This document shows positions 18,530 to 47,524 of a DNA stretch of 64,000 nucleotides, piece after piece. This DNA comes from Diplonema japonicum (Eukaryota > Protista > Euglenozoa: Diplonemea), in assembly GCA_964019335.1 (NCBI GenBank), contig OZ025707.1, positions 248,001 to 312,000 on the forward strand. The letters run 5' to 3'. The notes beneath the pieces were generated by a model. The model made no database searches. It saw only the letters and a program-made list of their open reading frames with translations, and was not told the origin of the DNA. Made by a program: the position numbers and the translations under genes. How positions within the stretch are numbered: the stretch's first letter is position 1; each line of letters opens with the position of its first letter.

Positions 18530-19359
18530 AAAAGACTCCTCAGAGAACGAAACTTCTGTTATCGTTGTCCCCTCCCATCCTTTTTTAACCCATAAAGGAC
18601 CGGAGCTGATTCATCAGTCAGTAAGTAAAGAAATTTAAAATTCTGGCTCTAAGGCATTTGTAATGCTCCTACAGCCCTTCTTTAAAGATTTTCTTTTTAT
18701 ACTGAACGTTGTCTTGCCCGTAAATCTTTGCATCAAAACTGCAAGGGGAGAGAGAAAAAAAAAAAAAAAAGAAATAGTGGCAAAATTTAACATGCCAAAT
18801 CGTGCCAAGATTTTTAACACGCCAAAACCTTGCAGACCGGGAGGAAGGCTGTGATATTTTCAAGGCAAAATTTAACATTCGCAATGAAATGAAGAAAAAA
18901 CGGATGCTATTCGGGGCGTCACAGCCAGGAATGGTACTGGACGGGGTGGAGAGCAAAATGATAGGGAAGAGGGGAAGAGGGGTGGACAGGTTACGATAGC
19001 GAGAGAACCGAGACAGGCGTCACGACACATCGACGGCCTCGGGATCGGACAAGATGACAGAGTACAGCACCTCAAAATCGCAATAGGCGCAACCCGCTGG
19101 TTGCACACTTTCAACATGTATGCGAAGTAAGGAAGAACTCGAGCAGAAGAAATCAAGATCACAGGTCGACCCCAAATAACATCGGGGGGGGAGTCGATCC
19201 CGGGCCTCAGGATTGGTAGCCGGCCTGACCAGAAATTAACGTCCCGAAGGAACTTACTTCCTGGCATTAAATAGCTATTATTATACAAATTTTCGTTTTT
19301 AGAGTAACATCCAATCCCCAACACAGTCCACTCTACCTAAACAACAACAACAACAAAAT

Positions 19360-21630: not shown

Positions 21631-21756
21631 ACATACTGCAGGCACCCTTAAATAGTCTCTTTTTTGAACGGTGAGCACCCACCCGCACACCGAAATTTAT
21701 CAATTTTTTTTTTTAATTTTTTTGGGGGTTCTTGAATTTGGGTTAAAAGAAATAAA

Positions 21757-24036: not shown

Positions 24037-24045
24037 CAATTACAG
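24031..24045 (+). promoter_or_regulatory. Putative programmed stop-codon readthrough signal CAA-TAG-CAA-TTA-CAG (TMV-type UAG-CARYYA)
   Basis: This is the only stop between the same-frame ORF1 and ORF2, and its context is identical to the tobamovirus leaky stop. Confidence 0.75.
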
Positions 24046-27000
24046 TTGTCGGCAGGGATGAGTGGAGGAAGCGCTAGTGGCCCACCTCTGCTCGATGACG
24101 TGCTCCGGATCACATCGATCAACGTCGGGTCGCTGCACAACAAGCTCCCGCAGGTCCTCGCAACACAAGATGAAATCGTATGCCTGCAGGAGACCAAGCT
24201 CACTGAACACGGTCAGCACCAGCTATCGCAGGCGATCGATGAGGGCGGGTATCACCCCCTATGGGGCCGCGCTCAGGAAGGCATGCCAGACAGAGCAGGG
24301 GTACTCAATCCGAATCTTGGGCAAAGGGGAGGCGTCGCGGTGCTGACAAAGAAAGGCAGACCTGCCATCGTAGCTCCTGCGTCGGGGATCACTGTGCAAC
24401 CGAACAGGTGGCTGCACACCATGATAAACGTGGATGGCCGCGATCTATGGGTCCACGTCATCACGGTGTATTGCAGTGCCGGTTACTACGGGAAGGATGA
24501 CAGGGAGCGACTCCTGCACGCGCTGCTCGTTGACCTGAGGGCTAGGCTTGGGGAGGTGCCGATCCTGATCTTGGGGGATTTGAACACGGACGTTTCCGGG
24601 TCGGCGACGCTGAGGCACGCAGTGGAAAACGACTGGGTCGATGTCGGAGCACTTCAGGCCGAGAAGGACGGAAGGAGACCTGACCACACCTTTGAGCGAC
24701 CCGGGACGGAGACTAAGACGCGGATAGACTTTGTCCTAGCCAACGCAGTGGCTGCCGGGGCGCTGAAACGCTTCTGGACGCACAAGAGGGTAAGGACTGG
24801 GGAGCATCTGTGCCTTTCTGTTGAGCTCTTCACACCGACGCTCAAGAAACGGACAAAGCGGTTTTTCCTCCCGAGGGAACTACCGGTGGGAGCGGTAACG
24901 CCTGACACTGAGCTTGACCAAGAGCTTGCTGACGACGACGTGCTCCGTCATGCTGCCGACAACAGGGACGTGGGAGGCCTCTACACCGTGCTGAGCTGCG
25001 CAACCGAGCGGTACATGCTGTCCGCCGCCGGGGTGACGAATGTGAAGCCGTTCGTAGGCAGGGGGGAACCACGGGAGCTGTCGGAGAAGATGGTGGCGGC
25101 GAAGTCGACTGGGACGTCAGGAGGGGCGGCCGCGCGGGACCAGACGATGCACGGCAACCTGAAGAGGAAGATTCAGGCTCTCAGGATCGGGCTGAACGAG
25201 GCGCTGCTGCGGGGTGGACCAGGAACGCTGCCGGCGATGCTGCATGGGACGTGGAAGAACATCGTGAAGCTGGCCGGGAAGATGCGCCTCGGGGTCGTGC
25301 TGGACGAAGATCTCCTACGGGGACCCAGCCTGGAAGCCGCGCTGGTGGGACTGCAGGAGCTGGAGGCTGCAGCGGACCAGGGTGACATGGAAACGGTGAA
25401 GCAGCAGCGTCTGGAGAACGAGGCAAGATACAGGAAGCGGGTGGCGGCTGATTTCCGTGACGACAGACGGCGTATCGTGGCGTACGTCAAGGGGAACAAG
25501 GAAGCCCACACACTGGCAGTTGCGAAAGAGGACAGTAGGTTGACGGTAGATCTGGAGGAGATCGACGCACTGATGAGGGGGGCGTGGGCCTCTGTCTTCC
25601 ACCTGTACCCGAACAAGAGCGACCGGCCCTCCTACGCTGCCTTCAAGGAGAGGTATGGCAAGTATGTCGACGGGCACCCCATGGAACTGGAACCGATCAC
25701 GGGTGGCGACCTCAGGGAGGTGCTGAACAGTAGGCCGGCGAGAGGAACCCCGGGTGTGGACGGCTGGAGGATCGCGGAGCTGAAGGCTATACCTGACGCG
25801 CTGCTGGAGAGGTGGGCGCAGCTCTTCAACATCATCGAGGAGACCGGCGAATGGCCGGAGGCGCTACTGACGGCACTCGTCTCCCTGATACCCAAGGGTG
25901 AGGACAGATCCCCGCTGAACCATCGGCCGATCACGGTCACCAGCGCTGTGTACAGGCTGTGGGCGACGACGAGGATGAGGCGCATCTTGGTCTGGCAGGA
26001 GTCGTGGGCGCACACGTCACAGCACGGTTTCAGGTCGAGGAGAGGGACGGACACGCTGCTGCTGGAGCTGACGACGCAACTCGAGGAAGCCCTGCTGTCG
26101 GGCACACCGATGCACGGTCTCGCACTGGACTTTGTCAAGTGCTTCGACCGCATCCCGCGGGAGGTGGCACTTGGACTGATGGGGGACCTGGGGCTACATC
26201 AGAACATACTGCGGCCGCTGACGACGATGTACGAGTCCCTCAGGCGGAGGTTCAAGTACCCGACAGGGGTGGGTGACGAGTTCGCCACATCGAACGGCAT
26301 CTTGCAGGGGTGCCCGATCTCGGTGGTGATGGTGAACGCGCTGGTGGGGGTGATGGTGAGGGCGATCATGGCGGAGGTGCCCGGGGCAGATTCCCTGTCG
26401 TACGCAGATGACGTGTACCTGATTGCAGCTCTGCTCAGCGCACTGGAGAAGGCGGCAGCGGGGGTAGGTGAATTCTCTCTGCTAACGGGGATGAGTCTCA
26501 ACCTCAAGAAGACGGACATGTTCTCCACAGAAGGGTCCGGGTCGGTGAAGTGTGGGCGGGAAGTGCTTGCAGCCAAGACGGAGATCAGCGCCCTGGGCAT
26601 CAAGGTTTGCATGGACGGCGAGCACAGGGCCAAGCCCCTTGTGGGAATGGAGCGGGCGTGCGGAAGGCTGGCTGCCATGCCGTTGGGATTCTCACAGAAG
26701 GCAAGGATCATCTCCAGCTCCATCCTCCCCTCTTGCCTCTACGGTGTTGCGTATGCCCCCCCCTCGAAAGTGGATGCAGGCACAATCCGGTCGAGAGTAG
26801 CGACATGCCTCTGGGGACCGAAGTTCAAGATGCGCTCACCGTGTGCTGTAGCGAACATCTTGCTGCCGGGGCACACGACGGACCCGCTGGTGGTGACGCT
26901 TTATCGACTGTTGTGCACGGTGGTGAAGGTTGGTAGGTCGGATGCAGAGCTGTGGGACCGGATGGGAAGGTGTGCCGCCCTGTACCTGCAGAGCGACGTG

Positions 27001-28170
27001 GAGGCCCAGGGACCAGTGGGAACCCTAGTGAGACGATGGCTGCCGGCGGTCGGGAAGAGCTGGAGTTTTGTGGAAGGGCTGCGTACCACGACCGAGCGGG
27101 AACGCAAACACGAGATCCGCCGAGTGGCACGGGCCATGACAGCAGCGGAACAAGCAGAAGGGAGGACCTCCTACAGCGGCATGCCAGAGGGGGCCGACCC
27201 GGTCACGAACGGGTGGTGGAGGGCGCTCGCGAACAACCCGATGGCGGCGTACAGGTTGAGGAGGCTGATTGCTGGGGCGGTGTTTGCGGTGTACCCTGCG
27301 GTGCGGGGAGTGGCGGAGGGGCCGGACAACCCGCTGCAGCACCTCTGTGACGTGTGTGGGGAGCGTTACGGCAGCTACACCGAGGTGCTGGAGCACGCCC
27401 TCTGGCGATGCGAACTCGGAGATGCGGTGCGGGGCAAGGCAGAGTATGCGAGTCTCGACCCAGCGACCATGCCGAACGCGACGACGCTCCACGGGATAGT
27501 GCCCAGGGGATGCCAGGACAAGCCGAGGGCCCTGTTGGTGCAAAGGTACCTGCTGGAGGTGGTCACACTGAGGGATACGGCGGTGGAAGCGAACCGCGCA
27601 TTGCAGACGCAGACATACCCGTGGCGGGTGGTCGTGACGGGAAGGGCACACCCGACGCCGACGGTGGCCGAATTACGTGGGCTGGGAGCATCGGGGAAGG
27701 TGATGGACAGGCTGCTGGGGCCGGTGCTGAGGTGGCTGAGTGGCTTGCTGTGGGATGACGCCCCTGGACGGCACACGACGGTTACGACGCTGGAGCTTGC
27801 CCTCGACTTCGAGCGGGAGACGGAGCTGCCGCTAGACGACGGCGGGGAAGTGGGCAAGGTGGAGGACCTGGGCGTCAAGGCAAGGAGGCTGAGGTATGTG
27901 CTGAGACGTGTCCAGGACCTGTACCACGCTGATGGCAGAAGGACGGCGTTCCCAGCAGCGCGAGTGGATCGCGTCAACTCCCTGCGCTGTATAGGAGGAC
28001 CGACCACACACGGGTATGACAGGAGGCCAGTACTCCCGGAGCGAACCATGAGCAGCATCGAAGGCTTGCGTGACACGTACCTGTCGCAGACCCCGACAAG
28101 GCTGCCCCGCAGTTTTACCACCGCAGTAGGAACCCGCCAGAGCCCCCAGAACGGGGACAACGGGGACTAA
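24037..28170 (+). CDS. LINE ORF2: AP-like endonuclease + reverse transcriptase + C-terminal Zn knuckle (first ATG at 24058)
   Basis: SINVGS, CLQETK, LGDLN, TRIDFV, GEH (APE); PGVDG, RPIT, QHGFR, LDFVKCFD, GILQGCPIS, YADD (RT); CDVC..HALWRC. Confidence 0.92.
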   Translation, partial: QLQLSAGMSGGSASGPPLLDDVLRITSINVGSLHNKLPQVLATQDEIVCLQETKLTEHGQHQLSQAIDEGGYHPLWGRAQEGMPDRAGVLNPNLGQRGGVAVLTKKGRPAIVAPASGITVQPNRWLHTMINVDGRDLWVHVITVYCSAGYYGKDDRERLLHALLVDLRARLGEVPILILGDLNTDVSGSATLRHAVENDWVDVGALQAEKDGRRPDHTFERPGTETKTRIDFVLANAVAAGALKRFWTHKRVRTGEHLCLSVELFTPTLKKRTKRFFLPRELPVGAVTPDTELDQELADDDVLRHAADNRDVGGLYTVLSCATERYMLSAAGVTNVKPFVGRGEPRELSEKMVAAKSTGTSGGAAARDQTMHGNLKRKIQALRIGLNEALLRGGPGTLPAMLHGTWKNIVKLAGKMRLGVVLDEDLLRGPSLEAALVGLQELEAAADQGDMETVKQQRLENEARYRKRVAADFRDDRRRIVAYVKGNKEAHTLAVAKEDSRLTVDLEEIDALMRGAWASVFHLYPNKSDRPSYAAFKERYGKYVDGHPMELEPITGGDLREVLNSRPARGTPGVDGWRIAELKAIPDALLERWAQLFNIIEETGEWPEALLTALVSLIPKGEDRSPLNHRPITVTSAVYRLWATTRMRRILVWQESWAHTSQHGFRSRRGTDTLLLELTTQLEEALLSGTPMHGLALDFVKCFDRIPREVALGLMGDLGLHQNILRPLTTMYESLRRRFKYPTGVGDEFATSNGILQGCPISVVMVNALVGVMVRAIMAEVPGADSLSYADDVYLIAALLSALEKAAAGVGEFSLLTGMSLNLKKTDMFSTEGSGSVKCGREVLAAKTEISALGIKVCMDGEHRAKPLVGMERACGRLAAMPLGFSQKARIISSSILPSCLYGVAYAPPSKVDAGTIRSRVATCLWGPKFKMRSPCAVANILLPGHTTDPLVVTLYRLLCTVVKVGRSDAELWDRMGRCAALYLQSDVEAQGPVGTLVRRWLPAVGKSWSFVEGLRTTTERERKHEIRRVARAMTAAEQAEGRTSYSGMPEGADPVTNGWWRALANNPMAAYRLRRLIAGAVFAVYPAVRGVAEGPDNPLQHLCDVCGERYGSYTEVLEHALWRCELGDAVRGKAEYASLDPATMPNATTLHGIVPRGCQDKPRALLVQRYLLEVVTLRDTAVEANRALQTQTYPWRVVVTGRAHPTPTVAELRGLGASGKVMDRLLGPVLRWLSGLLWDDAPGRHTTVTTLELALDFERETELPLDDGGEVGKVEDLGVKARRLRYVLRRVQDLYHADGRRTAFPAARVDRVNSLRCIGGPTTHGYDRRPVLPERTMSSIEGLRDTYLSQTPTRLPRSFTTAVGTRQSPQNGDNGD

Positions 28171-28457: not shown

Positions 28458-29025
28458 ATCAAATGCCGAAAACGAAGAAGGAAGAGAGTCTTCTACACAT
28501 TACCTGAAAACATGGGCTGACTTTCAGCTGCTTTGCACCAAAAAGCAGAAACTGGCCATGGACAAGTTGCTGTCTCCAGTAAAAAAAAAAAAAAACTTTC
28601 TCATAGTTATCGATGTCGTTTCCTCCCTTCCCGACCGGGGAGCCAGATGGTGGGGATAATATGAACTTAAGAATTGCATTAACTTAAGAAAAACATCAGA
28701 TGTGTTGTTCGCTGTTGACCTCGTCGGTCATCACCGGTAGCGCCCGAGTAAACATCGTGACGAACACGCGCCGAATCTTGGTTACCCGGGACGCCCCGGC
28801 TGGGGTTAAGCTGTACCGCACGCATTAAGGACACGACGCGGAACGCAGAAGAAGCTACAACTCGGCCGCGGTGCGCCCCCTGTAATCAAGTAGACAATTC
28901 TTGTGCAGGGCGTCGCCAACACCCTTTTAACTTTTATAAAAATATTTTTCTATAATACATAATCTCGTTTTCCGAGTTCCAATCCCCAACACAGTCTACC
29001 TAAACAACAACAACAACAACAAAAT

Positions 29026-32000
29026 ATGGATCCGTCGGTACTTCAGAAGTACGAGCAAGGGGAGTACCTCGGGTCCGGCGGACAGGGGTCGGTGTACAAG
29101 GCAGTGAGGAGGGTGGATGGAGATATCTTTGCGATGAAGGTGTTGAAGGCACACACTGAAGAGGAGCACAGGAAGAACATGGAGGAGGTGCTGCACATGC
29201 TGATGCTGCAACACAAGAACCTGGTCCCCTGCCTTGACTTCTTCGAGACGACAAAGCAGCTGGCAAAGGAATCCCTGGCCAAGGTGTGGCAGCTTCACAT
29301 CGTGATGCCCCTGTACGGAAAAGGGGACCTCTACTCATTCGTCAAAAAGGGGGGACCCCTCCCTCCGGAGTGGGCATACAGGCTCTTAAGCGAGATGGGA
29401 GGGGTCCTTCAGTACATTCACGACAAGGGCTTCATCCACAGGGACGTGAAACCCCAACACATCATGGTGTCGGGGAGGGGACCTCTTTCTGCGGCCAGTG
29501 TTGTTGGTGGCGGTGGGGGGGAGGCAGAGTTCATACTTGCTGACCTGGGACTGTCGAAGGAGGTGTCCCCCGGTGGGGTAGCGAATTCCATAGCAGGCAC
29601 ACCCGCTTACATGGCACCTGACTACTTTAACGACTGCTCACCCGGCTACACCAACAAAGTAGACATGTGGGCCCTCGGGGTGACTGTGTGTCACGTGGTG
29701 CTCCAAGCAGACCTGAGGGATCTCTTTCTGAAGTACCTGCAACATAACCGGGAGCTTGTAATGGAAAACTTTCAAACCCACCTCCCCCCTGCCCTCTGGG
29801 AAATTGTGTTCCGCCTCTTCTCCACCGACCCTTTGAAACGCCCCAGTGCACTGGAGATGCTGCAGATGGTTCCTCAGAATCCGACTGGTATAGTGGGGGG
29901 AATTGTTCTTCTTGCTGTTGGGAGTGTTGGTGGAGAAGAACGGAAAATGAAGCTCTGCGTGGCTGTGGGAGCAGGAGCGGAGGAGGTTCGTGTGGCGGCA
30001 GCAAAGGCCTTCTCTTCTGGTGGGCAGGAACTCCTCAGGGTTCGCAGGTTGGAGGTCTTCGACAAGGACTTCGAGGAGTTCGTGGAGCAGGACGACGGGG
30101 ACATCGTGTTCGAGGACAAAGGACGGGTCCGTGTCGTGTTTGAAGTACCGCTCCCAAGCACCACCTCTTCAACCACCAGTGTCGGCAGCGACATTTACCC
30201 ACCTGCTGCGAACAACACCACCCTCACAAAAGAGGAGGGGAGGCTTGCCTTCGTCAGCGCTGTTTCAAAAGGGGACCTTGAGGAGATGAGGGAACTTGTT
30301 CTAAAACGGGGTGTTGACCCTGGTGCAACGGACAGCGATGGTTTCACAGCCCTTCACTATGCAGCTCGCGAAAAAATCCGTATCGAGGCTGAGGTTCTCG
30401 TCTGTTCTTACAACCTGAACCCTGGTGTCAGAAGCAACGATGGTTGGACACCGGTTCATTCTGCAGCTTTCAACGGACGGCTCGAGACAGTTAAATATTT
30501 TGTTGAAACCCTCGGTCAAGACGCAGGTGTGAAAAGCAACGATGGTTGGACACCGGTTCATCAAGCAGCAGAGAACGGCCATCTCGAGACTGTTACATAT
30601 CTTGTCGAAACTCGCGGTCAAGACGCAGGTGTCAAAAACAACGACGGTAGGACACCGCTTGATCTAGCAGTACAGAACGGCCACCTCGCGATAGTTAAAT
30701 ATATTGTTGAAACTCTCGGTCAGGACGCAGGTGTCAGATGCAACGACGGTTTTACACCGATTCATGCTGCAGCAGAGTACGGCCAGCTCGAGACACTTAA
30801 ATATCTTGTTGAAACTCTCGGTCACAACGCGGGTGTGAAAAGCAACGACGATTGGACACCGGTTCATGCTGCTGCACAGAACGGACACCTCGTGACAATT
30901 ATGTATCTTGTCGAAACTCGTGGTCACGACGCAGGTGTCAAAAACAACGACGGTAGGACACCAATTCATCAGGCTTCATTAAACGGCCACCTCGAGACTG
31001 TTAAGTATCTTGCTGAAACTCGTGGTCACGATATAAGTGTCAAAAGCAACAATGGTTGGACACCGGTTCATGCTGCAGCAGAGAACGGCCACCTTGAGAC
31101 ATTTAAATATCTTGTTGAAACTCGCAGCCACGACGCAGGTGTCAAATGCAACGACGGTTTGACACCGATTCATGCTGCAGCAGAGTACGGCCACTTGGCG
31201 ACAGTTAAATATCTTGTCGAAACTCTCAGTCAGGACGCAGGTATTAGAAGCAACGACGGTTGGACACCGATTCATGCTGCAGCAGAGAACGGCCACCTCG
31301 AGACAGTTAAATATCTTGTAGAAACTCTCGGTCAGGACGCAAGTGTGAAATGTAACGACGGTTGGACACCGGTTCATGCTGCAGCAGAGAACGGCCACCT
31401 CGAGACAATTATGTATCTTGCAACTTGCGGTCAGGACGCAAGTGTCAAATGCAGTAACGGTTTGACAACGGTTCATGCTGCAGTACAGAACGGCCACCTC
31501 GAAACAGTTAAATATCTTGTTGAAACTCTCGGTCAGGACGCAGGTGTGAAATGTAACGACGGTTGGACACCTATTCATCAGGCTGCATTAAACGACGATC
31601 TCGAGGTAGTTAAGTATCTTGCTGAAACTCTCGGTCAAAACGCAGGTGTCAAAAGCAACGACGGTTGGACACCGATACATCAGGCCGCATTCAACGGCCA
31701 CCTCGAGACAGTTAAATATCTCGTTGAAACCAGCGGTCAAGCCCCAGGTGTCAAAAGCTGCTGCGGTCAGACACCGGTTCGCATAGCAGCCGAGAATGGC
31801 CACCTCGAGACGGTTAAATACCTTGTTGAATCTCGCGGTCAAGCTGCAGGCGTGAAATGCGACCACGGTTTTACACCGATACATCAAGCTGCATTGAACG
31901 GCCACCTTGAGACAGTTAAATATCTCGCTGAAACTCGCGGTCAAGATGCAGGTGTGAAAAGCTGCACCGGTCGGACACCGGTTCATCAAGCAGCAGAGAA

Positions 32001-32337
32001 CGGCCACCTCGAGACACTTAAATATCTTGTTGAAACTCTCAGTCAGGAAGCAGGTGTCAAATGCCCCGACGGTTGGACACCGGTTCATGCTGCTGCACAG
32101 AACGGCCACCTGGAGACAGTTAAGTATCTTGTTGAAACTCGCGGACAAGCTCCAGGCGCGAAAAGCAGCGACGGTCGCACACCGGTTCATGTTGCAGCCG
32201 ATAATTGCCAGCTCGAGACTGTTAAATATCTAATTGAAACTCTCGGTCACGACGCAGTCAAATACAACGACGGTCGGACACCAGCGACGGACAGAAAAAA
32301 GGAAAGCCTCCAAACGAACTTTCCCCCATCCCGATAA
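29026..32337 (+). CDS. Kinase - ubiquitin-like - ankyrin protein, copy 2 (about 20 ANK; catalytic loop Asn->His)
   Basis: Paralogue of 19360 with the same 5' leader; HRDVKPQH; long array of 34-aa ankyrin units. Confidence 0.85.
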   Translation: MDPSVLQKYEQGEYLGSGGQGSVYKAVRRVDGDIFAMKVLKAHTEEEHRKNMEEVLHMLMLQHKNLVPCLDFFETTKQLAKESLAKVWQLHIVMPLYGKGDLYSFVKKGGPLPPEWAYRLLSEMGGVLQYIHDKGFIHRDVKPQHIMVSGRGPLSAASVVGGGGGEAEFILADLGLSKEVSPGGVANSIAGTPAYMAPDYFNDCSPGYTNKVDMWALGVTVCHVVLQADLRDLFLKYLQHNRELVMENFQTHLPPALWEIVFRLFSTDPLKRPSALEMLQMVPQNPTGIVGGIVLLAVGSVGGEERKMKLCVAVGAGAEEVRVAAAKAFSSGGQELLRVRRLEVFDKDFEEFVEQDDGDIVFEDKGRVRVVFEVPLPSTTSSTTSVGSDIYPPAANNTTLTKEEGRLAFVSAVSKGDLEEMRELVLKRGVDPGATDSDGFTALHYAAREKIRIEAEVLVCSYNLNPGVRSNDGWTPVHSAAFNGRLETVKYFVETLGQDAGVKSNDGWTPVHQAAENGHLETVTYLVETRGQDAGVKNNDGRTPLDLAVQNGHLAIVKYIVETLGQDAGVRCNDGFTPIHAAAEYGQLETLKYLVETLGHNAGVKSNDDWTPVHAAAQNGHLVTIMYLVETRGHDAGVKNNDGRTPIHQASLNGHLETVKYLAETRGHDISVKSNNGWTPVHAAAENGHLETFKYLVETRSHDAGVKCNDGLTPIHAAAEYGHLATVKYLVETLSQDAGIRSNDGWTPIHAAAENGHLETVKYLVETLGQDASVKCNDGWTPVHAAAENGHLETIMYLATCGQDASVKCSNGLTTVHAAVQNGHLETVKYLVETLGQDAGVKCNDGWTPIHQAALNDDLEVVKYLAETLGQNAGVKSNDGWTPIHQAAFNGHLETVKYLVETSGQAPGVKSCCGQTPVRIAAENGHLETVKYLVESRGQAAGVKCDHGFTPIHQAALNGHLETVKYLAETRGQDAGVKSCTGRTPVHQAAENGHLETLKYLVETLSQEAGVKCPDGWTPVHAAAQNGHLETVKYLVETRGQAPGAKSSDGRTPVHVAADNCQLETVKYLIETLGHDAVKYNDGRTPATDRKKESLQTNFPPSR
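30420..32290 (+). repeat. Tandem ~102-bp ankyrin-coding repeat array
   Basis: Recurring unit ggttggacaccggttcatgctgcagcagagaacggccacctcgagacagttaaatatcttgttgaaactctcggtcaagacgcaggtgt. Confidence 0.9.
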
Positions 32338-36514: not shown

Positions 36515-38399
36515 CCGCAGCCCGTCCTGGCTAGGGTTAAGCTGCACACTTTAAGGACACGACGCGGAACGCGGAAGAAGCTACAGCTCGGCCGCGGTGC
36601 GCCCCCTGTAATCAAGTAGACAGCTCATGCTTCGCTGCACACTTAACGCCACTTGGTGTTGCAATCAAAGCCCCGTATTTTTCTCTTTTTTTTTTTTTTT
36701 CTTCTTCTCCTTTCTCGTTCCTCCCTGTGTTTTTTCTTTAATCAGAATGGTGCGACTGCTCAGATAACGTGCACGGGACCTCAAGCTAGTTTTATGGTAA
36801 AATGAATATGTTGAGACGGTTCGTACGAACCCCTACAGACCCTGTTGAGTGTTTGTACGCATGCCGCACTGAATATACGTACCTACCTTACCAATGAATA
36901 TACGTAAAAATATCATAAATACAAGTTATAGAACCTCTTTGCACGCCCCAGCACACATTCTTTAAGCAACGTTTTATCTTCCCTGCCCTCCCCCCTTTTT
37001 TTTTGGACACTTCTTAACACACTTCCATTGGCTCCACTCAGCCACCCCCCCCCCTCTTTTTGTCTTTTCTGTTTATCCCCCCCCTTTTTTTCAAAATGTC
37101 AACATAAACACACAGGACGGGGGGTGAATGGGTGGGTGACAGCGCGGCTGTGACACGGTTGTTCGAGTCGGGGTATTCCCGTAACTGGACTACGAGCGGC
37201 ATTCTCTCAAAAACTTCTGTTTGGTATGATTCCTTTTCCGTGGCAGGTGGCGCTTTAGGTGGCCGAAAAGAAAGCACGATCCCCTCCTATCCCGGGGAAA
37301 CCCTTCTTGACATCCTCCCTCCGATCCATTGGTGCAAACAAACGGGTCCGAGGAGGGTATTCCTGCAGACCTACATTCGCATCGTACGACAAGGTGCGCT
37401 TCATCCTTGAACAGCGACTCGCAACCGGCTCACTGGGGAGGGACGACTGGGACAACAAGTTCGTGCCGACTATTTTGAATCTACCCGAAGAATCCCCACC
37501 CCATCTGCCGATAAAGATGCAGCGACGCAGAAGTAACAACACAAGATAGACCCTCCACCATGCTGCACACTTAACGCCAAATAGTGTTGCAGCCAAAGCC
37601 CCATTTTTCTTTCCTTTTCTTGAGGTGGTGGATAACATGGAAATATAAGAAGTACATCAGATGTGTTGTTCGCTGTTGACCTCCTCGTCGGTCATCACCG
37701 GTAGCGCCCGAGTGGAAGAACGTATTGCAGATGCTCAGGGTGACGAACAGGCAGCAAACTGCACGAGCGCAGAATCTTGGTTACCCAGGACGCCCTGGAG
37801 TCGGGGTATTCCCGTAACTCACGGCTGATCCGATCAAGAGCCCCGCATCTGTCCAGGTCCCCGTTATGGGGACCCGGTCCATGCAGTTGGACTCTCTTAT
37901 TTAACTAGTTAAATTATGGCCGTTTCGCGTTAAATTATGAGGCCCCTAGTGAGTGAAGAAAATGACGAAGAGTGAAATAAAAAAAAAAAAAAGGCCATTA
38001 GCCAACTGTGGAAAGAGAATACCCATGTCACAAAAGGTGCTAGAACAATAACACAGGCCGACACGAAAGCACGAACGTCTCAACACACTTCCGTTGGCTC
38101 CACACAGCCCAGCTGGGTGGGGTCGGTCTGGCTAGACCGAATTAAAAAAAAAAAAAAAAAAAAGAGTGCCCTGCAACCGAAGCGGCGAGGGCGAAGCACT
38201 CTTCGACACCCTGTCACTGAAGCACGTCCTAGTGGAAGAACCCCGAAAGACGATCCTGTTTCTCGCCGAAACAGAGATGCAACCCCCCACCACGGCAGCC
38301 GACCGAACAGACGCAGCAGTGTGAAGAAAATAGAAAACCCCCCAACGAACTTTTCCCCACCCCATAACGTGATCAAAAAAAAAAAAAAAAATAACTATT

Positions 38400-38551
38400 T
38401 ATTAAATGAAAATAAGATTGCATTATTTCACGCGTGGTGGCAGGGGGTTTAACGAGAGAGGATCTTACTTCACGAGCGAAGCGAGTGTAGTAATAATTTC
38501 GAGTTAAACCCGCCACCACAAGTGAAATAATGCACTTATTTTCATTTAATA
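38400..38551. mobile_element. Palindromic MITE-like hairpin element
   Basis: About 50-bp inverted arms attaaatgaaaataag..tgcattatttcac.cgtggtggc..gggtttaac / gttaaacccgccaccacaagtgaaataatgcacttattttcatttaat around a central cacgagcgaagcgagtg. Confidence 0.65.
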
Positions 38552-38933
38552 TGTTGTTTTATTTAATAAGAGCCAGGTTTGAAAGGGTGGGAGGTTACAG
38601 GTGCAGGCACAGGTTACAAGAAGAAATCAAAACTGAGAGGCAGCAAAAAAGGTTGGGTATTATAAGCTACAAGGGATTTCAAGTTACCAGTTCTCGTTAG
38701 TTCATTAATGTTGATGTCGAGGCTTATCCTATGCATCGCTACCGCTGGAACCCCATCCCAAAAAGATTTTTCAAGGGGTTGGGTGCATTTTTTTCCACGG
38801 TGAGACCCATTTTTTCACTCTGAAGGGCCATTATTTAACTGCAAAATCTCATTATTTAACTAGTTAAATAATGGCCATTTCGCGTTAAATAATGAGGCCC
38901 CTAGTGAGTGAAGAAAATGACGAAGAGTGAAAT

Positions 38934-38964
<31 letters not shown>

Positions 38965-39236
38965 TACTGAGGTCCGGCACCCGCAGTAGCCAAAAAAAAA
39001 AAAAAAAAAAAAAAAGTGTAAAGTGCCAAACAACCAGCAAAGCTTGTGGGATGAGAACACCAGTACGGTCATGAGTTGCCCGGGCAACCGGGTGAGCGTC
39101 TCGAGACACTTCCAGGGTGCGGCCTTAGCAAGTCGAAAAAGAAGTGGAATTTAAAAAAAAAGAAAAATAGAATAGCGGAAATATGTGGACGTTCCAAAGG
39201 TAGCTGATCCGACGTTATTGGGATTTAATCTATTGT

Positions 39237-39490
39237 TTAACCCTTAAACGCCCAACTGCTTCTGTAGAAGCAGTTAATAGGTGTAATTGTTCTGTGGTCA
39301 TCTAGACCAAAGCCTCGGATCGGTTTTCATAAAAAAAAGATGGAAGGGAAAGATATTGAAAATCTGTGTTAAATGCGCTATTTGTATCCATCTGAAACCT
39401 CATAACTTCATCCCGGAACGGGTGCCGAGACACTGGGTGACACCAAAAATGGGCATTTTCCGGATTTTCATGATTTTTCCGTGATTTTTT

Positions 39491-39524
<34 letters not shown>

Positions 39525-39734
39525 AACTTGAACAAGTAAACAAATTTTTGAAAAGAATTGTTATTGCAAAAAAGAGTAGAGGCAGCTTGTCCGTTTATCC
39601 CTACTGTAGGTGAAAACGGCTTGCACAAACAATCAGCCGACTCTTTTTTCCGAGTCACTAGGCCTTATCAAAATCAACATGCCAGCACACAACGGGAGCA
39701 GTTCCCGTCGACCTGCAATGTTCATATGGGTTAA
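39237..39734. mobile_element. Possible piggyBac-like non-autonomous element
   Basis: TTAA-CCC at 39237 and GGG-TTAA at 39728-39734; palindrome aactgcttct-gt-agaagcagtt. The TIR match beyond CCC is poor. Confidence 0.25.
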
Positions 39735-40180
39735 ATCCACCTCTCTCGTTTCTTTTTTATTTATTAGGACCGCGATGACGATGTAGTTGTGGGTCCGGTT
39801 GGGATCCTACGAAACAGGTGCCCACCTTTCTGGAGAACGGATGGTTTTTTTGATGCACTCGTTCTTCGTCGCGTCCCAGTGGCCTCCCGCAGTCCGGCGG
39901 TTCAGAGGCTGGCAACGGTCCTGCGAGCAGACGCTGCTGTAGCGTTCCACGAGCAGCAATCGCAAGCCTTGCAGTCTGCCTGACGGTACGCGAGCAGCAA
40001 CAGCAGCGACACCAACACCAGGGGCGCTCGAATGCCAAACAGGACCCCAGCAGCAACACTACTACGTCCCCTTCGAACCCCAACAACACCCCCACCAGAT
40101 CTACTGCTCCCTCGATACGGCTGAACGACGACGGGGAGCTGTCGATCCAGGCTACTGGGTCCAACTACAAGTCCCTGTGT

Positions 40181-43100
40181 ATGAAGATCACCGCGATGTG
40201 TGCACACCCCGATGTGCTGAACTACGACTTCACTACCTGGGCCCCCAAGACCGTCTTCAGGTACCTGAACTTCCTGAGACGTTACTTCGTCGGGAACTTC
40301 TTCACCGCCAAGATCGCGGCTATCGAACGAGGCCTCACCAACCGCCTCAGCCCTGCCCTCTTGAAAAAGGTGGTCCGCCGAGACGAAGGCTTCGTGTGGT
40401 TCAAAACGAGTTTTGACCACAAGGCCAAGGAGATGATCCTCTGGCGTAAGGTCTTCGAGGACAAGGAGGTAATTGCGGCATGCCCCAAGCCAGCCCTCCT
40501 TCGCAGAGTACACATGTGCAACAAGCTTGGTCAAACCCTCAAGGCCACAGTGTGCAATGTGACGAAGCTCAGCATCGAGACCCCGCGTCCAGAAGCGGCC
40601 GAGCCTACAACAAACTGCCCTTGCTCGAAGCGCAAGACCTCACACACACATGAGGGACACGCCTGCGGACTAGCAGCAGAGGTCATCGATGACGACGAAG
40701 TGAAGGAGGTTCTGAACAGAAGCATGAAGTTCCGCCTCTCAACACACGCCCTCCTCTCTTCCCAAAGTCTCGAGGAGGACATCAACGGGTTCATCACTCA
40801 GAACTTTCGGAGATCCCCTGCAGTGAAAAAGGATTCCTTCCGGAAGGTCCTCCTCGCCAAGGCACAGAACCTTCTCCACCCCCACACTCAGTCTCCGGTC
40901 TTCGACCCCTCAGTCCCGGAGTTCATCAAGACAAAGCTCCGGAAACTTCAGGAGGTCTACGTTTTCCTCCCCATAGACAAAAGCACCCACGACATTGGCG
41001 TCTGTTGCAAGGATCGCCCCTTTTTATCTATTTCTTCGCTTCTTCATCCTAACTTAAAACCATTTCAGCTACCTCAGGATCCTGCACCAACAGCTTGATA
41101 GCCAAGCTTTCGAGCCGGTCTCGAAGCCCTTGGACTCGATCTTCTCCGAAATAGCTGATCAAGCCAAGACCTTCAACCTCGATTCCACACGTCGCATGCC
41201 ATACCTGTACGGTACCCTGAAGCTACACAAAGACAAAGTGGGCGTCAGGTGGATCTCTGGTGTCTCCTCCACTGATGCACCCCCTGTGGACCAACCAGCA
41301 GCGGTCAGCACGCAGGAAATTATGGAGAACTTGGTCGCAGCAGGCGGCGATACAACGGGCAATAAAGCTAAGAAACCCACAGCTGCCACCACGGCCCTCC
41401 ATCTAGAACTGTCTTCCCTCCTGAAGGCTGTCCAACGCGCGCTGCTGGACAAGGATCTGGAGGGCAGGTCCAAGACCCACGGTCCCGACGGTATCCGACT
41501 AAAGCGGTACTGGATCGTCGACTCGGCCGAGAACGTAGCTGCGGATATCAAGCAGCAGTACACGGCTTACAAAAGCCTGTCCCCTGCCACGTACGACTTC
41601 CGGGACATGTACACCAACCTCGACCAAGAGCGTCTGAAAGAGGGGGTTCGTAAAGCAGTCCAAGAAGCGTTCGACTTCACCGGCAAGAACCTCACCCGTG
41701 GCAAGGACGGGAGCTCCTTCACAGATGCCGACGAGGACGATGTCTACACCCCGGAACGGATCCATAAGCTCCTGGACCTCGTCGTTGACAACACCTATGT
41801 TGTGCAGGGTGGCCGCGCCGTTCGTCAAGTAAAGGGTATCCCCATGGGTGGGAACGCCTCCCCCGACCTGGCGAACCTGTTCTGCTACGCCGTGGAGGCC
41901 GCATACATCGACAAGCTCCTCGCCGAAGAGGACTGGGAGACCTTGAAACGCTACTGCAACGCGTGTCGCTACATCGACGACTTCCTGTTGTGGAGCACTG
42001 CGCCACCCCCGGAGGAGCTTTATGGCATGGCTTATGTAAAGACCTCTTCAGACCCATGCGACGTCCCCTTTATCGGGATTCGCATCCGGATAGAGCGCCA
42101 CGAACAAGCTAAGCACAACTATATTAGACTTAGCATTAACGATAAGGCGCAGAACTGGCGCTTCCGGCCTACGCGGTTCACCCACGGGCACACCGCGGCG
42201 CCCACCACCCAGGGACCAGGCATCTTCAAGGGCATGGTCATCCGTGCCTGCGCCCTGACCAACAACATCGCGGACCTCAAACGGGAGATCGCTTCAGTGA
42301 TCTACCTGCTCCTAGATCGCGGTCACGACAAGGGCGGCCTGCGGAAAGCGTACAACGCCTTCCTTATCGAACGCGTGGATCGACGCTTCGCCATGGAGAA
42401 AAGCAACCTGCTGGCCTTCTTCACGCAAGTCCTCCACCGATACGACGCCAAAGCCCCGGTAGATTCTTGGTTGCCGGAAAAAACGTACATAGGCCCCAAG
42501 AAACCCCGTGCGCTTCCCACGGACGACTCCTCGGACGACTCCTCAGCTGACTCCTCAGTCGTCTCCTCAGTCGCCTTCTCGGGGGGCCCCTCAGACGAGC
42601 CCTCGGACAGTTCCTCGGACAGCTCTTCAGGTCTTGTCGAACCGTCACAACCCCGAGCAGCCTCCGTGGTCTCACCATCTGGTGTCACGGACCAGGTTTT
42701 TTCGCCCCCCATCAACCTGCACACCAACAGCGGGGAAGGTCGCCTGGGCCTGGAATGCGGCTGGGCCGTCATAAACTGGTTGGCGGACTATGCTGGTGTG
42801 GACCGCATCCCCTTCTCTACAATGCAGGAGATCCAGGAGATGTACCACGGCTTCTCACGACTCATCTCCCCTTCCAGCACTGATGAAGCGCCCGATCCTC
42901 TTGGCAACTTTTCCCGCTCGACCTTGTCACGTGCTTGCCTCATGGTCGTTGGTGCAAACTTGGAGGTCTTCCGTGCGGGCATGAAAGAAAGCCCCTGCTT
43001 GATCGTTGGTCCCTTGAAACGAAGTCTCAGCGGCCACTGGTTCATCGCTCTCAGGAAGAAGGGAAGGTACATGGTCAAAGACACCGACGTACGGCTAAGG

Positions 43101-45350
43101 CTCCAGAGCTTCAAACACATCTGCGCGACATACTCCGAACACAACATCCTCTGCATCCCAGACGATGTGTGGGCCAGGACAACCCCAGGCAGGAAACACA
43201 ACACACGTGTTCTAGACCCTGAGGCTGAGTTTCGCCAGTTTGGGCCGGTCATCACCCCGGCGGCACCCCAGGTAAGCGACTCGAGCGCGCGAAAGACTGA
43301 GACCGCTCTCAACACCCCGGAAGATCGCACCCTCCTAACTTATGTCACCCTAGCTGCAGCTATAGCTACATATGCCGCACGCACCCGACGGCTCGACACA
43401 GGAGTCGCCGCATCAGGTGTGGATGCGCACACCGCTCACTTCGGGCGGCCCGTCGCCACCGCCATCGTAGCCCTAGCTGCCGCCGTGGCCGCGCGAGCCG
43501 TGCACACCGGATGCTCTGTCACCACCACGTCTACGGCAAGCCAGACTAACGTGTTCGGAACTGTCCCGCTCTTCCTGAAGGTCTCGAGTCTGCACAAGTC
43601 TACACCACAGACAGCAGTCGCAACCTGTCAGACGGACCGTGTCACAGCACCTGTACTGTTCTCGATATCATCGACGCTCCAGACGGATCCTCCCAGCAGT
43701 AGACTGCCCCCGATGGACGCCGGACTGGGGTCGCCCTCGGCCGCGGCGGTCAGACTTACGAAGTCTGTCGAAATTCCGACGCCCCGCGCGACCCTGTCGA
43801 GGCGGCTGGTTACTGAGCCTCGGTTGACACCATGCCTTCCACCGCCAACGGACGTGTCATCCACCCAGCTCGCGGCCTGCACTCAGTCCACCCGTCGGGA
43901 CACCGGACACGGGAGTGACACACCGATGCCGTCGTCTACCATGGGACACGCGACACTCCAACCAGTGGTCGGCTCCCAGATTGTGACAACGTCGGCTGTG
44001 GAGTCATCGCTCGCCCGAGCCGTGACAACGCCCGTTCTGGCAGACGCCCCCCTCGGCGCCCGCCAAGTACAGCTCACTCCTTGCATCCAGTCCGTCCATG
44101 AGAACATCGGACTCGGGATGGATACGCCGATGGCTCCCGCCATGGGACACACAACGCTTCAACCGGTGGTCAACGCCCAGAGAGACACGACGCTGACCCT
44201 GGAGCCGCCCGTGGCCCGAGCCGAGGCAGACGCTCCCCTAGACCCTCACCAGGCGGATGGTGGTTTAGAAATGATCGACCTCACGCAGGACTCCCCGGAC
44301 AGACCCTCGCGCAAGAAGAAGCACGACGGCACTGCTTACGAGCACGAAAGCCGTCGTGGTAAGAGTTCCTCCACAGGCGATGGGGATCTTCTCATCCTGC
44401 GCGAGCAGTCACAGGGTTTTGATCAGAAAGCCCTCAACCGAAGGGCCCTCCAGAGACGGATGGATCGATACCTCAGTCTCTTGGTCTACTTCCGGCGACA
44501 CCCGGAGCTCTTGGACGAACACCAGCGTCAGCTCCTGTCGGTCGGTCCCCTCCCGATGCACCTGGACACCTCTCCACATCAACTGCTGCTCGAGGCCCGT
44601 GACACGGATAGAACTGCCGACCAACAGGCAACCGTCGCCAACCAGGAACAGCTTCTTCTGATTGCGCACAAGGCGTTGCCTACCACCGAACGTCTTCGGT
44701 TGTCTCACGAATGGCACTCGGGGCTGAACACCGCGGTACAGCAACAGTGGTGGTCGGAGTTCTTCGCCCAAGGCGGCTGGAAACACCCACTCTTCGGTTC
44801 CGAGGCCCCAAGAGGTGACGAGACTAGGACTCCAGGGAGGACCCCTCTCCTGCTCACCTACAACGGGCAGAGGAACAAACGCCCGGAACCCGAAGACGGC
44901 CCCGCCCTTCCCGCGGCCAAACGGGATCTCGCCGCGACGAGGCCGAACACCAGAGTCACTGGACTTGTCGCCCTTAAGAGGCTCACCAGGGAAGCAGACG
45001 TCGACGGCCCTGAGGACCTGGATGAGCTTCGACACCTGGGCTTCCTTTCCCAGGGCGAGGCCGTCTTTGACCTCAGCTGCATGTCCGGGGCTTGCACACA
45101 CTTCCTGGGTGAGACCCCCATGGTCACGGTCCCCCTCGACACACGCGTCGCGATCCCGTGTCTGCTGGTCTGTTATGACTCGACGTGGCTCTACGCTTCC
45201 CGCCAGGAACAGGGCTTTCGGTTGCAGACCCAAGGGTTCAAGGACAAGTCGTATCCGACTGTGGCAGCCCTACTCGCTGACTTCGTGGGGGCAGGGACCC
45301 TCTACTACAGCGAGTCACAGTGGTCGACTGTGCTGAACTCCTACAACTAG
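40181..45350 (+). CDS. PLE polyprotein (N-terminal domain - RT - Josephin-like protease - low-complexity linker - degenerate second Josephin-like unit), interrupted by a 52-bp insert at 41017-41068
   Basis: Removing 41017-41068 gives in-frame ..DIGVCCKDRYLRILHQQL.. The frame stays open upstream to about 39853 without an ATG, so the true start is uncertain. Confidence 0.75.
41017..41068 (+). repeat. 52-bp exact copy of the PLE 3' terminus (45785-45836), splice-acceptor-like
   Basis: cccctttttatctatttcttcgcttcttcatcctaacttaaaaccatttcag is identical at both sites. Confidence 0.9.
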
Positions 45351-45836
45351 GAACTACTGGAGACGACCCTACGCAATGTAGGAGTGCCGGCCCGGCGTGC
45401 TACGAGGGCGATAGGCTATGCAGGGTCTCACAGACCTCGCACCCTATGATTTTAGTTTCCACCTTTTCCTTTTCCACTTCTTGTCTTTTAACTTCCCTTC
45501 TGCTTTCCCAACATGGTTTCCGTCCCGGGTATGACGTTAAACTGCGTCCGCCGACGCATTTGGGTCAACATTCTCTGATGACCAAGCCGTCTTTTTCCGT
45601 TTCTTCTCCCCTTCTCTTTGTTATGTTATTTTCATTATTCTTTCTGGCGATAGACTGATACGGGCCATGGAAGCAACCTCTGCTTAATTCCTGGTACGTG
45701 GGAGGCTCCTCTTGAGGATGTCAGTCACCTTTTCCCTTTTTTACTCGACTCTCTGTTTTCGTATGCAGTATTTATTCTTTCCCACCCCTTTTTATCTATT
45801 TCTTCGCTTCTTCATCCTAACTTAAAACCATTTCAG

Positions 45837-46480
45837 GTACCTTACTGAAACTCTCGATCAAGACGCAAGTGTCAAAAACTGCTGCGGTGAGACACCGATT
45901 CATCTAGCAGCGGAGAGCGGCCACCTCGAGACAGTTACATATCTTTCTGAGACTCGCGGTCACGACGCAGGTGTGAAAAGCAACGATGGTTGGACACCGA
46001 TACATGCAGCAGCACAGAATGGCCAGTTCGAGACTGTTAAATATCTTGTTGAAAATCGAGGTCAGGACGCAGGTGTGATATGCAGCGATGGTCGGACACC
46101 TGTTCATGTTGCAGCAGATAATCGCCACCTGGAGACAGTAAGATATCTTGTTGAAACGGTCGGACACCAGCGACGGGGCAGCGAAGTAACTGACAATGAG
46201 AGGAAACAATTGCAAGGCTGAACAAGGAAATAAAATGCTATACAGCGAGCAGGTGGAAGGGAAGTACCCGTCACCAATCAGCCAGAGACATGACACGTTC
46301 TTGTGGAAAACCACAAACGCCATCATGCAATATAAAAAAGAATATATATATCTCGGTGAATCCGGGGACCTGCCCACCTCCTCAACAACTCAACAACAAC
46401 CATCTAACCTGCCGAAGTAGCATGCTGATCAGAAGGCGGCTGAGGCACTTATGATTTAGTCAGAATCCCCGAGACTCCAT
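45837..46480 (+). pseudogene. 3' portion of a third kinase-ankyrin family copy (about 3 ANK plus 3' region), truncated by the PLE
   Basis: YLTETLDQDAS..GWTPIHAAAQNGQ.., stop at 46221; the 3' flank matches 21200-21262 and 32405-32500. Confidence 0.75.
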
Positions 46481-46545
46481 CGTTTGAATCTTAAAAGAAG
46501 AAAGAAAAAGGAGGGGAAAAAAAAGGGGATCAAGGGTCCGACACT

Positions 46546-46875
46546 TTTGCTTTTTATTCCCACTTGCAATATCATTTCAGACACCCCCTGTGGAACTGAC
46601 CTGACCAGCCCACCTCCCGTAGTTTCAGCCATTTTCCTCCCACCACTTCATGGTTTTTATATAAAAACTTTATTTTATTCGACTTTCTGTTTTCGTATGC
46701 AGTATTTATCCCTCTTCACCTGTTTTTTTATTGTTTTCGCTTTTTATTCCCACTTGCAATATCATTTTTAGGTGCCCCTTTTGTCGATGTCAGACGAGGG
46801 TGAGCCACTTACATTACCTTTTCCTTTAAGCAACTTCTGGTACGTGGGAGGGTCTTCTTGAGGATGTCAGTCACT
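46546..46875 (+). mobile_element. Relics of related PLE 3' ends
   Basis: 46676-46771 resembles 45744-45836; 46546-46580 repeats its end; 46836-46874 matches 45692-45729. Confidence 0.6.
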
Positions 46876-47040
46876 TCTTTTTTTGAGAACAAGGGGGCGT
46901 CTCACAAAAACTTCCTTTAACTCATATATTTCTTATTCGACTTAAAGTCCCCCCCCCCCCCCCCCCCCCTTGTACTGCTTTTTTGTTATTATTTTCCTTC
47001 TTTCCCTCTTAAAACACACATTCAGAAAACCAGCTACTTG

Positions 47041-47120
47041 CACAACAACAACAAACATGCACCCACCTGCTGCGAACAACACCACCCTCACAAAAGAGGA
47101 GGGGAGGGTTGCCTGGTCAG
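47041..47120 (+). pseudogene. 5' stub of a stand-alone ankyrin-module gene (MHPPAANNTTLTKEEGR)
   Basis: (CAA)n leader and ATG at 47057, followed by sequence near-identical to 30197-30250. Confidence 0.6.
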
Positions 47121-47147
47121 TCCATCGGATACGAATTTATTATAGTG

Positions 47148-47250
47148 CGACATGATCAGACTGGAACGGCCGCCCCGGGGCATCCTCTGCTCAACCCGGC
47201 GGACGTGGGAGGCCCTTCTTCGGAAGGTGCCAGTCGCTTGATCAGTGTCG
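47148..47250. other. GC-rich multi-stem structured segment
   Basis: Outer stem cgacatgatca-gactgg / ccagtc-gct-tgatcagtgtcg; inner stems ccgccccggg..cccggcgg and ccttc-ttcg-gaagg. Confidence 0.35.
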
Positions 47251-47524
47251 TCGAATGCGCGCTATATTTTATAATTATGTTTACATCAATCGATCGAAAA
47301 CAGAAGAACGCACACCAAGAGCTCATAGTTTCTTCCACGAACGGTCGTTTCGATGCTCTCCGGGGCCTTAGGAAAAAAAAGATTTTTTTCTGACAGGTTT
47401 TGGCATGTTAGAATTCTTCCTTAGGATAAGACCGGCTTTTTTTGAAATTTCCCTTAGAGATGGACAGGCAGGACGGCAAGATAGCACAGTAGCGGAGATG
47501 GGGAGGAACTGAGACGCCGTTATG

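Follow-up and report, generated by a model that had tools for sequence, protein, structure and literature searches.

A Truncated Chlamys-type Penelope-like Element of Diplonema japonicum with a Josephin-like Protease Domain behind the Reverse Transcriptase

The 64,000-nucleotide stretch of Diplonema japonicum DNA analysed here (the window; contig OZ025707.1 of assembly GCA_964019335.1, positions 248,001 to 312,000) carries on its forward strand a copy of a Penelope-like element (PLE), in which the reverse transcriptase (RT) is followed by a domain resembling the Josephin family of cysteine proteases. The element is probably (our estimate is about 0.7) a truncated and frameshifted copy of the Chlamys type, the full form of which most likely has the order GIY-YIG endonuclease (EN), CxC motif, RT, Josephin-like protease, and long tail, with the protease predicted to remove ubiquitin or a ubiquitin-like tag. 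This copy is 5′-truncated at position 39982 and cannot encode the whole element protein.

Class of the Element

Chlamys elements are defined by a CxC motif between EN and RT, reduction of the DKG motif to DK, an insertion in fingers (IFD) of about 20–40 aa between RT3(A) and RT4(B), and an N-terminal GIY-YIG EN that has no CCHH (Craig, Yushenova, Rodriguez, and Arkhipova 2021, PMC8557442); CxC and IFD are described there as not being features of Athena or Coprina. The window element has a CxC region (NCPCS..HEGH at 40613–40660), a DK motif (PIDKS at 40970, the counterpart in Chlamys-1_cBra being PVDKT), and an IFD at the short end of the range: the distance from the motif A Asp to the motif B Gly is 80 aa, and a hand count from Fig. 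S1 of the same paper (PMC8557442) gives 61 for PenelopeD and 94 for Chlamys-1_cBra. Judged by these motifs, the element is a Chlamys-type PLE, for which the position of the EN is N-terminal. The Penelope-like nature of the RT, proposed in a preliminary description of this DNA, is borne out by a match to Pfam RVT_1, by motifs A, B, and YIDD, and by the relatives. The link to published Chlamys elements runs through the relative P0186, which by eye is close to Chlamys-1_cBra and whose cluster mate P0043 is in the RT tree; the trees contain no published sequence. In a Chlamys-type PLE the EN is N-terminal; contrary to what had been suggested, the protease is therefore not in the place expected for an EN, and there are relatives that carry EN and protease together.

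The combination of a PLE with a Josephin domain is already published, Chlamys-1, -4, and -6 of Chara braunii having an N-terminal EN and a C-terminal Josephin-like motif (PMC8557442). As far as these elements are described, the window element resembles them in its predicted N-terminal-EN architecture, in CxC, DK (the DK region being nearly alike by eye), and IFD, in the lack of a canonical hammerhead, in its long open reading frame (ORF; about 1,800 aa in Chara, here about 1,775 aa left and up to about 290 missing), and in the Josephin-like domain behind the RT, where the Chara domain was compared by description only. It differs from them in having no C/H-rich second motif after the protease and in its host, a diplonemid rather than a streptophyte alga. 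Its RT also lies outside the clade of the Chara-like rows P0014/P0043, which are tied to Chlamys-1_cBra by eye via P0186, and falls in another well-supported clade, half of it USP carriers.

The Protease Domain

The main open frame of the element (41058–45350, 1430 aa) includes the RT, a Ser-rich linker, and the Josephin-like domain. The peptides that the preliminary description had reported behind the RT, and the Cys, His, and Asp of a putative triad, all lie in this frame at exactly the positions given there, with 93 aa from Cys to His and 15 aa from His to Asp. In an alignment to ataxin-3 made through profile A2 (13 rows), the order and spacing of the triad and the aromatic residue after the His are as in Josephins: Cys, then His followed by Trp, then Asp 15 aa later. 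The Cys and an Asn are kept in all 19 aligned domains, His plus an aromatic residue in 15/15 full-length domains, and Asp in 14 of these 15, with Glu in one. The identity of the domain is low, 12–18% to full-length related domains and 15–17% to eukaryotic and bacterial Josephins, but P0004 and P0055, at 40–42% identity, have the Cys motif too.

Among the RT relatives, a small set, the domain matches P0055, P0004, P0042, and P0108 (E 2e-18 to 1e-3), and P0042 in turn matches a profile of six Pfam-labelled PLE Josephins with an E value of 4e-21. Relatives in the same alignment as the window domain do pass the Pfam Josephin cut-off. Profile A2, searched against the PDB, gives ataxin-3 (E 2e-6), ATXN3L (1.5e-4), and JOSD2 (0.0095), which occupy the first five rows, and HH-align returns a probability of 81% over 120 columns. 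Leave-out profiles, built without the window domain and the three partial relatives nearest to it, were compared with 5000 shuffles as controls. With nine domains (seven Pfam-labelled and two bridges) the window scores 16.9 bits and the best shuffle 9.7; with the seven Pfam-labelled domains only it scores 5.8 bits, and two of the 5000 shuffles are higher; with six divergent domains added it scores 7.9 bits, and the best shuffle 6.8. A profile of all 18 domains gives 37.8 bits. Since the divergent “DCG” domains lower the score of the window, it is their Josephin label that is the weaker one. These domains form a Josephin-like group with a DCG..N motif (L001:1669-5229, L021, L035, P0020, P0053, P0078), have no Pfam match, and are flanked by Cys/His-rich finger-like motifs that may match the “unknown C/H domain” of the Chara elements.

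The AlphaFold model built on A2 has a predicted local distance difference test score (pLDDT) of 71 and a predicted template modelling score of 0.66. Compared by VIA-align with 48,161 chains, it is closest to ATXN3L (Z 8.9, root mean square deviation 3.2, 129 aligned), followed by JOSD2 (7.9), the C39 peptidase ComA (7.2), and the bacterial PaJOS (7.1); four Josephin entries lead a repeat of the fold search, with Z up to 9.0 for ATXN3L and 8.1 for ataxin-3. The combination of AlphaFold and Foldseek that had been proposed as a check thus yields a papain-type fold with Josephins at the top in VIA-align, but Foldseek gave no significant match. The model gives good support to a papain fold, with Josephin as the family that suits it best. 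The triad, the profile match to ataxin-3, and the best fold match to Josephins together bear out the Josephin-like protease domain that had been proposed. The domain is like ataxin-3, ATXN3L, JOSD2 (PF02099), and bacterial Josephins (bioRxiv 10.1101/2024.07.24.604956) in its predicted papain fold, its helix with Cys...Asn, its G-x-F motif, its His-aromatic pair, and the position of the third catalytic residue 15 aa after the His; it is unlike Josephin deubiquitinases (DUBs) in having no Gln at Cys−5, in its 15–17% identity, and in being fused inside a retroelement polyprotein.

The Endonuclease and the Truncation

In EN-positive PLEs the target DNA is cut by the GIY-YIG nuclease and the RNA is copied by the RT (PMC11167929, PMC8557442). 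A tblastn search with the EN regions of four relatives found no trace of GIY-YIG in the window, the best among the matches listed having an E value of 0.08 and lying inside an ankyrin gene, and the statement that no such motif is visible therefore holds for the window. The frame upstream of the main one (39854–41098), in which a cryptic nuclease had been thought worth looking for, proved to be the N-terminal part of the same protein, separated from the rest by a 53-nt insert, and has no trace of a nuclease in it.

In runs X1, X3, and X5 the match of the contigs to the window starts at 39982, with 641, 882, and 105 further letters 5′ of that point; the 30 letters read there are identical in the three contigs, continue the frame, and encode a K/R-rich linker. 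A K/R-rich linker block lies between EN and RT in Naiads (PMC8557442). The start of the matches at 39982 and the in-frame continuation in other contigs mean that the window copy is 5′-truncated and that longer copies are present in the same organism. The window's own junction at 39982 is crossed, by 31 letters, by one contig of run X6. Contig depth increases toward the 3′ end, as 5′ truncation would give, but depth is not copy number, so this was not counted as evidence.

What the longer copies would encode is suggested by relatives. The N-terminal part of the window protein aligns to residues 341–631 of Diplonema papillatum P0154 (E 1.6e-38 among the collected proteins), in which GIY-YIG occupies residues 210–297. 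With a local profile seeded with 14 relatives, 13 of them Pfam-positive, GIY-YIG was found in the same frame in 33 of the 34 non-redundant relatives whose sequence extends ≥700 aa upstream of motif B, in 9/9 of the protease carriers among them, and in all four long members of the window's RT clade. In 35 relatives the GIY-YIG domain ends 556–693 aa ahead of motif B; the window retains 600 aa. GIY-YIG and Josephin occur together in P0186, P0020, and L001 (there across a frameshift) and also in Chlamys-1_cBra (PMC8557442). The missing nuclease is therefore best explained by truncation, in view of the cut at the domain end, the longer in-frame copies, and the presence of GIY-YIG in nearly all long relatives. 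No full-length N-terminus was found among proteins of 602–2000 aa (none of 3408 candidates), and none of 52 pattern matches in viral contigs was confirmed.

The preliminary description had taken the element for one of a lineage without EN, in which the Josephin domain took the place of the nuclease. Loss of EN within Chlamys is known from PLE-X1 of Chara and Selaginella (PMC8557442), and such a lineage would fit the absence of a nuclease from the window; moreover, the kept linker and 12 further residues make 612 aa to motif B, which is longer than in 27 of the 35 relatives, and none of the seven Josephin-like rows of the window's clade extends far enough 5′ to show an EN. It is nevertheless very unlikely, since the cut lies at 39982 and other copies continue in frame for up to 882 nt, GIY-YIG is present in 33/34 long relatives and 4/4 long clade members, and Josephin and GIY-YIG coexist in the four elements named above; an EN-less PLE lineage is thus unsupported.

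Relatives and the Post-RT Slot

When the RT and the domain together served as phmmer query, 1793 relatives were found at E ≤ 0.001, and the top 150 were taken further; a scan of metagenomes gave 286 loci, 80 of which were kept. The 196 RT cores obtained were reduced to 159 by removal of 37 at ≥85% identity. Pfam was run on 110 of the 150 proteins (the 40 omitted were all under 380 aa) and at E ≤ 0.01 gave USP in 8, Josephin in 7, OTU in 4, Ulp1 in 1, and GIY-YIG in 12; four protease matches, in P0012, P0035, P0103, and P0124, are under the Pfam cut-off. Among 33 metagenome ORFs, from 32 of the 80 loci, Ulp1 was found in 8 and USP in 1. GIY-YIG and RT share one frame with USP in P0154, P0159, and P0170, with Ulp1 in L006, L016, and L023, with OTU in L010 (local profile only), and with Josephin in P0186 (Pfam E 1.2e-9) and P0020 (a divergent Josephin-like domain, local profile only). 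By these matches the slot behind the RT thumb is exchangeable among USP, OTU, Ulp1, and Josephin. One locus, L012:189-6563, has two proteases in one element, a single 2125-aa frame containing USP in front (Pfam E 5e-61), GIY-YIG, RT, and a C-terminal Ulp1-like domain. In P0034 and L004:64-4386 a post-RT G-x-C-G motif with a later H-F is matched by none of the four protease profiles and is possibly a fifth type of cysteine protease. Other accessory domains are found on related RTs: OTU with DnaJ in P0103, OTU with PHD in P0124, and two chromodomains without GIY-YIG in L068.

The RT tree made with most care has 42 rows, 35 labelled by protease and 7 unlabelled (LG+G4, no published outgroup). In it the window RT belongs to a clade of 16 rows with 97/99 support (USP 7, Josephin-like 7, unlabelled 2) and adjoins Flectonema P0004 (87/86), which has the same ECGW..N motif. 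The protease labels change 10 times on this tree (minimum 4, shuffled mean 18), and six of the changes concern Josephin, three of these being forced by starred branches; a quick tree of 83 rows has eight label changes, five for Josephin. An approximately unbiased test rejects a single clade for the 15 Josephin-like rows (p 8.7e-7), a group that was named after the first tree was seen. It should be noted that the counts of change are blind to gain versus loss, so that a single ancient Josephin domain with many later replacements is as good an account as several captures. The distribution suggests that ubiquitin/SUMO proteases were captured repeatedly, which is known to have happened in Ginger1 transposases.

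The full-length relatives with the highest RT identity (43–44%) are KAJ9437456.1 and KAJ9462022.1 of D. papillatum, which have the same linker, CxC, and RT as the window and likewise have the protease directly behind the thumb; their GIY-YIG is intact, USP (C19) is in place of Josephin, and they are annotated as a host enzyme. D. papillatum thus holds a copy with all domains. These two proteins and KAJ9472448.1 (P0154, P0005, and P0156, respectively) are named “Ubiquitin carboxyl-terminal hydrolase 26” and are Chlamys-type element proteins, so that “ubiquitin hydrolase” genes in the annotated proteome of D. papillatum include wrongly named ones. P0003 (“Kinesin-like protein 3”), P0164 (“V-type ATPase a3”), and P0006 (with a calpain domain) look like gene models fused to Chlamys-type elements. 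So far as available, the main text of the D. papillatum genome paper (PMC10161547) has no mention of Penelope or PLE and its seven supplements none of Penelope, GIY-YIG, Chlamys, Naiad, or Josephin.

The C-terminal slot of Ginger1 transposases holds OTU or Ulp1, for which a role in DNA repair signalling has been proposed (PMC2836005); Dualen non-LTR (long terminal repeat) elements (as cited in PMC8557442), Utopia/NeSL (PMC4640811), and Helentrons (PMC6431247) also have proteins with a protease for ubiquitin or ubiquitin-like modifiers. Roles like the one proposed below for the window protease have been suggested for the proteases of Dualen and Ginger1. All of these are other classes of transposon, whereas here four protease families, USP included, occur in one slot of one PLE group. 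A full-text literature search, with subscription journals, Repbase Reports, and bioRxiv supplements outside its reach, found no report of PLEs in diplonemids or of USP, OTU, or Ulp1 in PLEs. Chlamys elements extend to diplonemids, and what was not found in print is the diplonemid-associated Chlamys branch together with relatives that have USP, OTU, Ulp1, or Josephin in the same slot.

Proposed Function of the Protease and Alternative Explanations

All four Pfam families recognised in the slot act on ubiquitin or SUMO, and from this we infer a role in ubiquitin removal and DUB activity for the window domain. In a full-length element, GIY-YIG would nick the target and target-primed reverse transcription would follow, as in other EN-positive PLEs. 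The predicted protease may act in cis and strip ubiquitin from the particle that the element's protein forms with its RNA, or it may do so from repair or chromatin factors at the nick; ubiquitin removal would let the particle persist until it has integrated. The repeated capture of a single activity suggests that hosts use ubiquitin or SUMO to defend themselves against the elements. In its widest form this proposal, to which we give an even chance, would be that the slot has been refilled repeatedly by unrelated ubiquitin/SUMO proteases, in some cases by two together, beside an intact EN, that in protists and algae generally tagging by ubiquitin or SUMO is a host barrier to these elements, which are related to telomerase, and that some diplonemid “host” USP genes are weapons of transposons.

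A number of observations weigh against the assignment and function proposed here. The oxyanion Gln of ataxin-3 lies five residues before the Cys, where a Gln is visible in the profile alignment. The window domain has Arg at this position, in agreement with the earlier remark that the Gln is not evident, and Gln is present in 2 of 18 related PLE domains; it is also absent from most PLE domains that pass Pfam Josephin. The two closest relatives, P0004 and P0055, end before the His, so that confirmation of His and Asp comes from more distant relatives only. The domain alone (42702–43199) has no Pfam match at E ≤ 1 and does not reach the Pfam Josephin cut-off, and a PDB search with its single sequence gave a chance match only; a word-index search among longer proteins found it in none of 235 candidates, and alignment A2 in none of 2697 among proteins of 34–291 aa. 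Foldseek returned nothing at E ≤ 0.001, a C39 peptidase being first (E 0.087) and ataxin-3 second (0.18), and C39 reaches a Z of 7.2 in VIA-align. The beta half of the model is weak (pLDDT 42–76), and the model depends on Josephin-like relatives, whose alignment went into it. The EN of the window's own family is a prediction from relatives. Finally, 29 of the 40 GIY-positive rows have no recognised protease, in some cases because they are cut short; with so many doing without one, the protease is an accessory.

The rank of C39, first in Foldseek and third in VIA-align, would suit a papain-fold processing protease, C39-like in function and with no ubiquitin role, that cuts a polyprotein of ∼1,900–2,100 aa to free the RT, as would the absence of the oxyanion Gln from the ataxin-3 position and the long disordered linkers that flank the domain. 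Such an enzyme is unlikely, given that relatives with the same slot pass the Pfam Josephin cut-off (6 of the 7 Josephin matches among the 110 proteins), that the other occupants of the slot are USP, OTU, and Ulp1, with the scans listing no protease of the aspartic or serine type behind the RT, and that the domain shares with Josephins its G-N-F motif and the long helix that follows the Cys helix. It is quite unlikely that the domain is a Josephin descendant now decaying or carried as an inactive passenger, at most a ubiquitin-binding module: the domain is indeed very divergent (12–18% identity), under every Pfam threshold, and without the oxyanion Gln, and many relatives have no protease at all, but the three catalytic positions and the gatekeeper aromatic residue are kept despite this divergence, the frame is open for 1430 aa, and the Cys motif is kept in P0004 and P0055 at 40–42% identity. 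We thus prefer the predicted Josephin-like protease acting on ubiquitin or a ubiquitin-like tag.

Layout of the Copy

The features of the copy are collected in Table 1.

Table 1. Features of the PLE copy and of the repeat next to it, in window coordinates
Feature	Position	Strand	Evidence and remarks
Separate repeat	39644..39982		Adjoins the truncated PLE copy, outside the element frame; contigs of all runs match, then diverge past 39982
N-terminal part of element protein	39983..41015	+	Linker end, CxC (NCPCS 40613, HEGH 40649), GxKF-like SMKF 40721, DK (PIDKS 40970); in relatives, GIY-YIG is located 5′ of this part
Frame-breaking 53-nt insert	41016..41068	+	98% identical to 45785-45842 (self-BLAST); pyrimidine tract ending in AG
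Penelope-like RT with insertion in fingers, plus thumb	41069..42452	+	Motif A 41592, motif B GIPMG 41835, YIDD 41970; Pfam RVT_1 E 1.8e-4
Ser/Asp/Pro-rich linker	42519..42701	+	Sequence
Josephin-like cysteine protease domain (predicted)	42702..43165	+	Cys (TGC) 42756, Asn 42774, GNFS 42903, His (CAC) 43035, aromatic gatekeeper Trp 43038, Asp (GAC) 43080
Long low-complexity Thr/Ser/Pro/Ala region	43200..44990	+	Internal duplication 43866-44031 / 44070-44233 (69%); basic RKKKH motif 44310
C-terminal region, ~120 aa	44991..45350	+	Not shown to be a second Josephin unit
3′ untranslated tail	45351..45557	+	Element 3′ end near 45557 (approximate): loose end behind 45557 in run X1, piece 45312-45557 in run X11

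In the contigs of runs X1, X3, and X5 a single letter stands where the window has the 53-nt insert, whereby the two frames become one, and a second, diverged copy in runs X1 and X5 likewise has no insert (four runs; X11 does not reach the place). An intron was considered and rejected: the insert starts with GC and ends with AG, but its excision leaves the frame shifted, and other copies simply have no insert. No displayed contig bridges the insert, which could stem from a template switch or from an error in the assembly. The sequence of which it is a copy (45785–45842) lies just 3′ of the element and ahead of an ankyrin fragment; it is a pyrimidine tract with AG at its end and resembles a splice or trans-splice acceptor; the insert, if used as an acceptor, could yield a transcript for RT and protease without the N-terminus (first ATG 41196).

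A degenerate second Josephin unit, which the preliminary description had placed at the end of the ORF, was rejected as unsupported. The local alignment of 45040–45330 to the first domain scores 32, which is reached by 550 of 5000 shuffles and is thus not above chance, and the DNA similarity is under the shuffle mean. BLASTP gives an E value of 1.8, and neither a His-Trp nor a triad Asp is aligned. A single-sequence model of the region has a pLDDT of 44, and the best Z in a fold search with it is 3.1. The low-complexity region 43200–44990 has no Pfam family and no match among the RT relatives.

An Rfam scan (E ≤ 1) of 38000–47500 found no hammerhead, its seven matches all being far under the gathering scores, and no CTGA-N-GA...GAAA hammerhead core was found. 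The self-BLAST of the window showed no pseudo-LTR, and a search for target site duplications gave only low-complexity matches of 7–8 bp, with one weak 8-bp candidate. The repeat at 39644–39982 is present on many contigs of every run, where it normally continues into other sequence.

Surroundings of the Element

The genes of the window are long, unbroken, eukaryotic, and all on the + strand (a cohesin loader, ankyrin kinases, a polycystin channel, and a long interspersed element (LINE) with OTU in ORF1). The named relatives nearest to the RT are from Diplonema japonicum (58% and 67%, short stretches only), D. papillatum, Flectonema neradi, and Lacrimia lanifica, and by themselves they make a diplonemid host likely. 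In the LINE-type element (21736–28170), ORF1 includes an OTU domain (Pfam E 1.3e-6) and ORF2 encodes the APE endonuclease and the RT, which makes two retroelements of the window for which a deubiquitinase is predicted. The LINE sits between two kinase-ankyrin paralogues (19303–21153 and 28963–32337) that are 90% identical over 1.8 kb. A third ankyrin fragment (45826–46221) lies directly behind the PLE. Upstream of the PLE there are inverted-repeat stretches at 38808–38919 and 38408–38543, the first of which has relatives elsewhere in the window.

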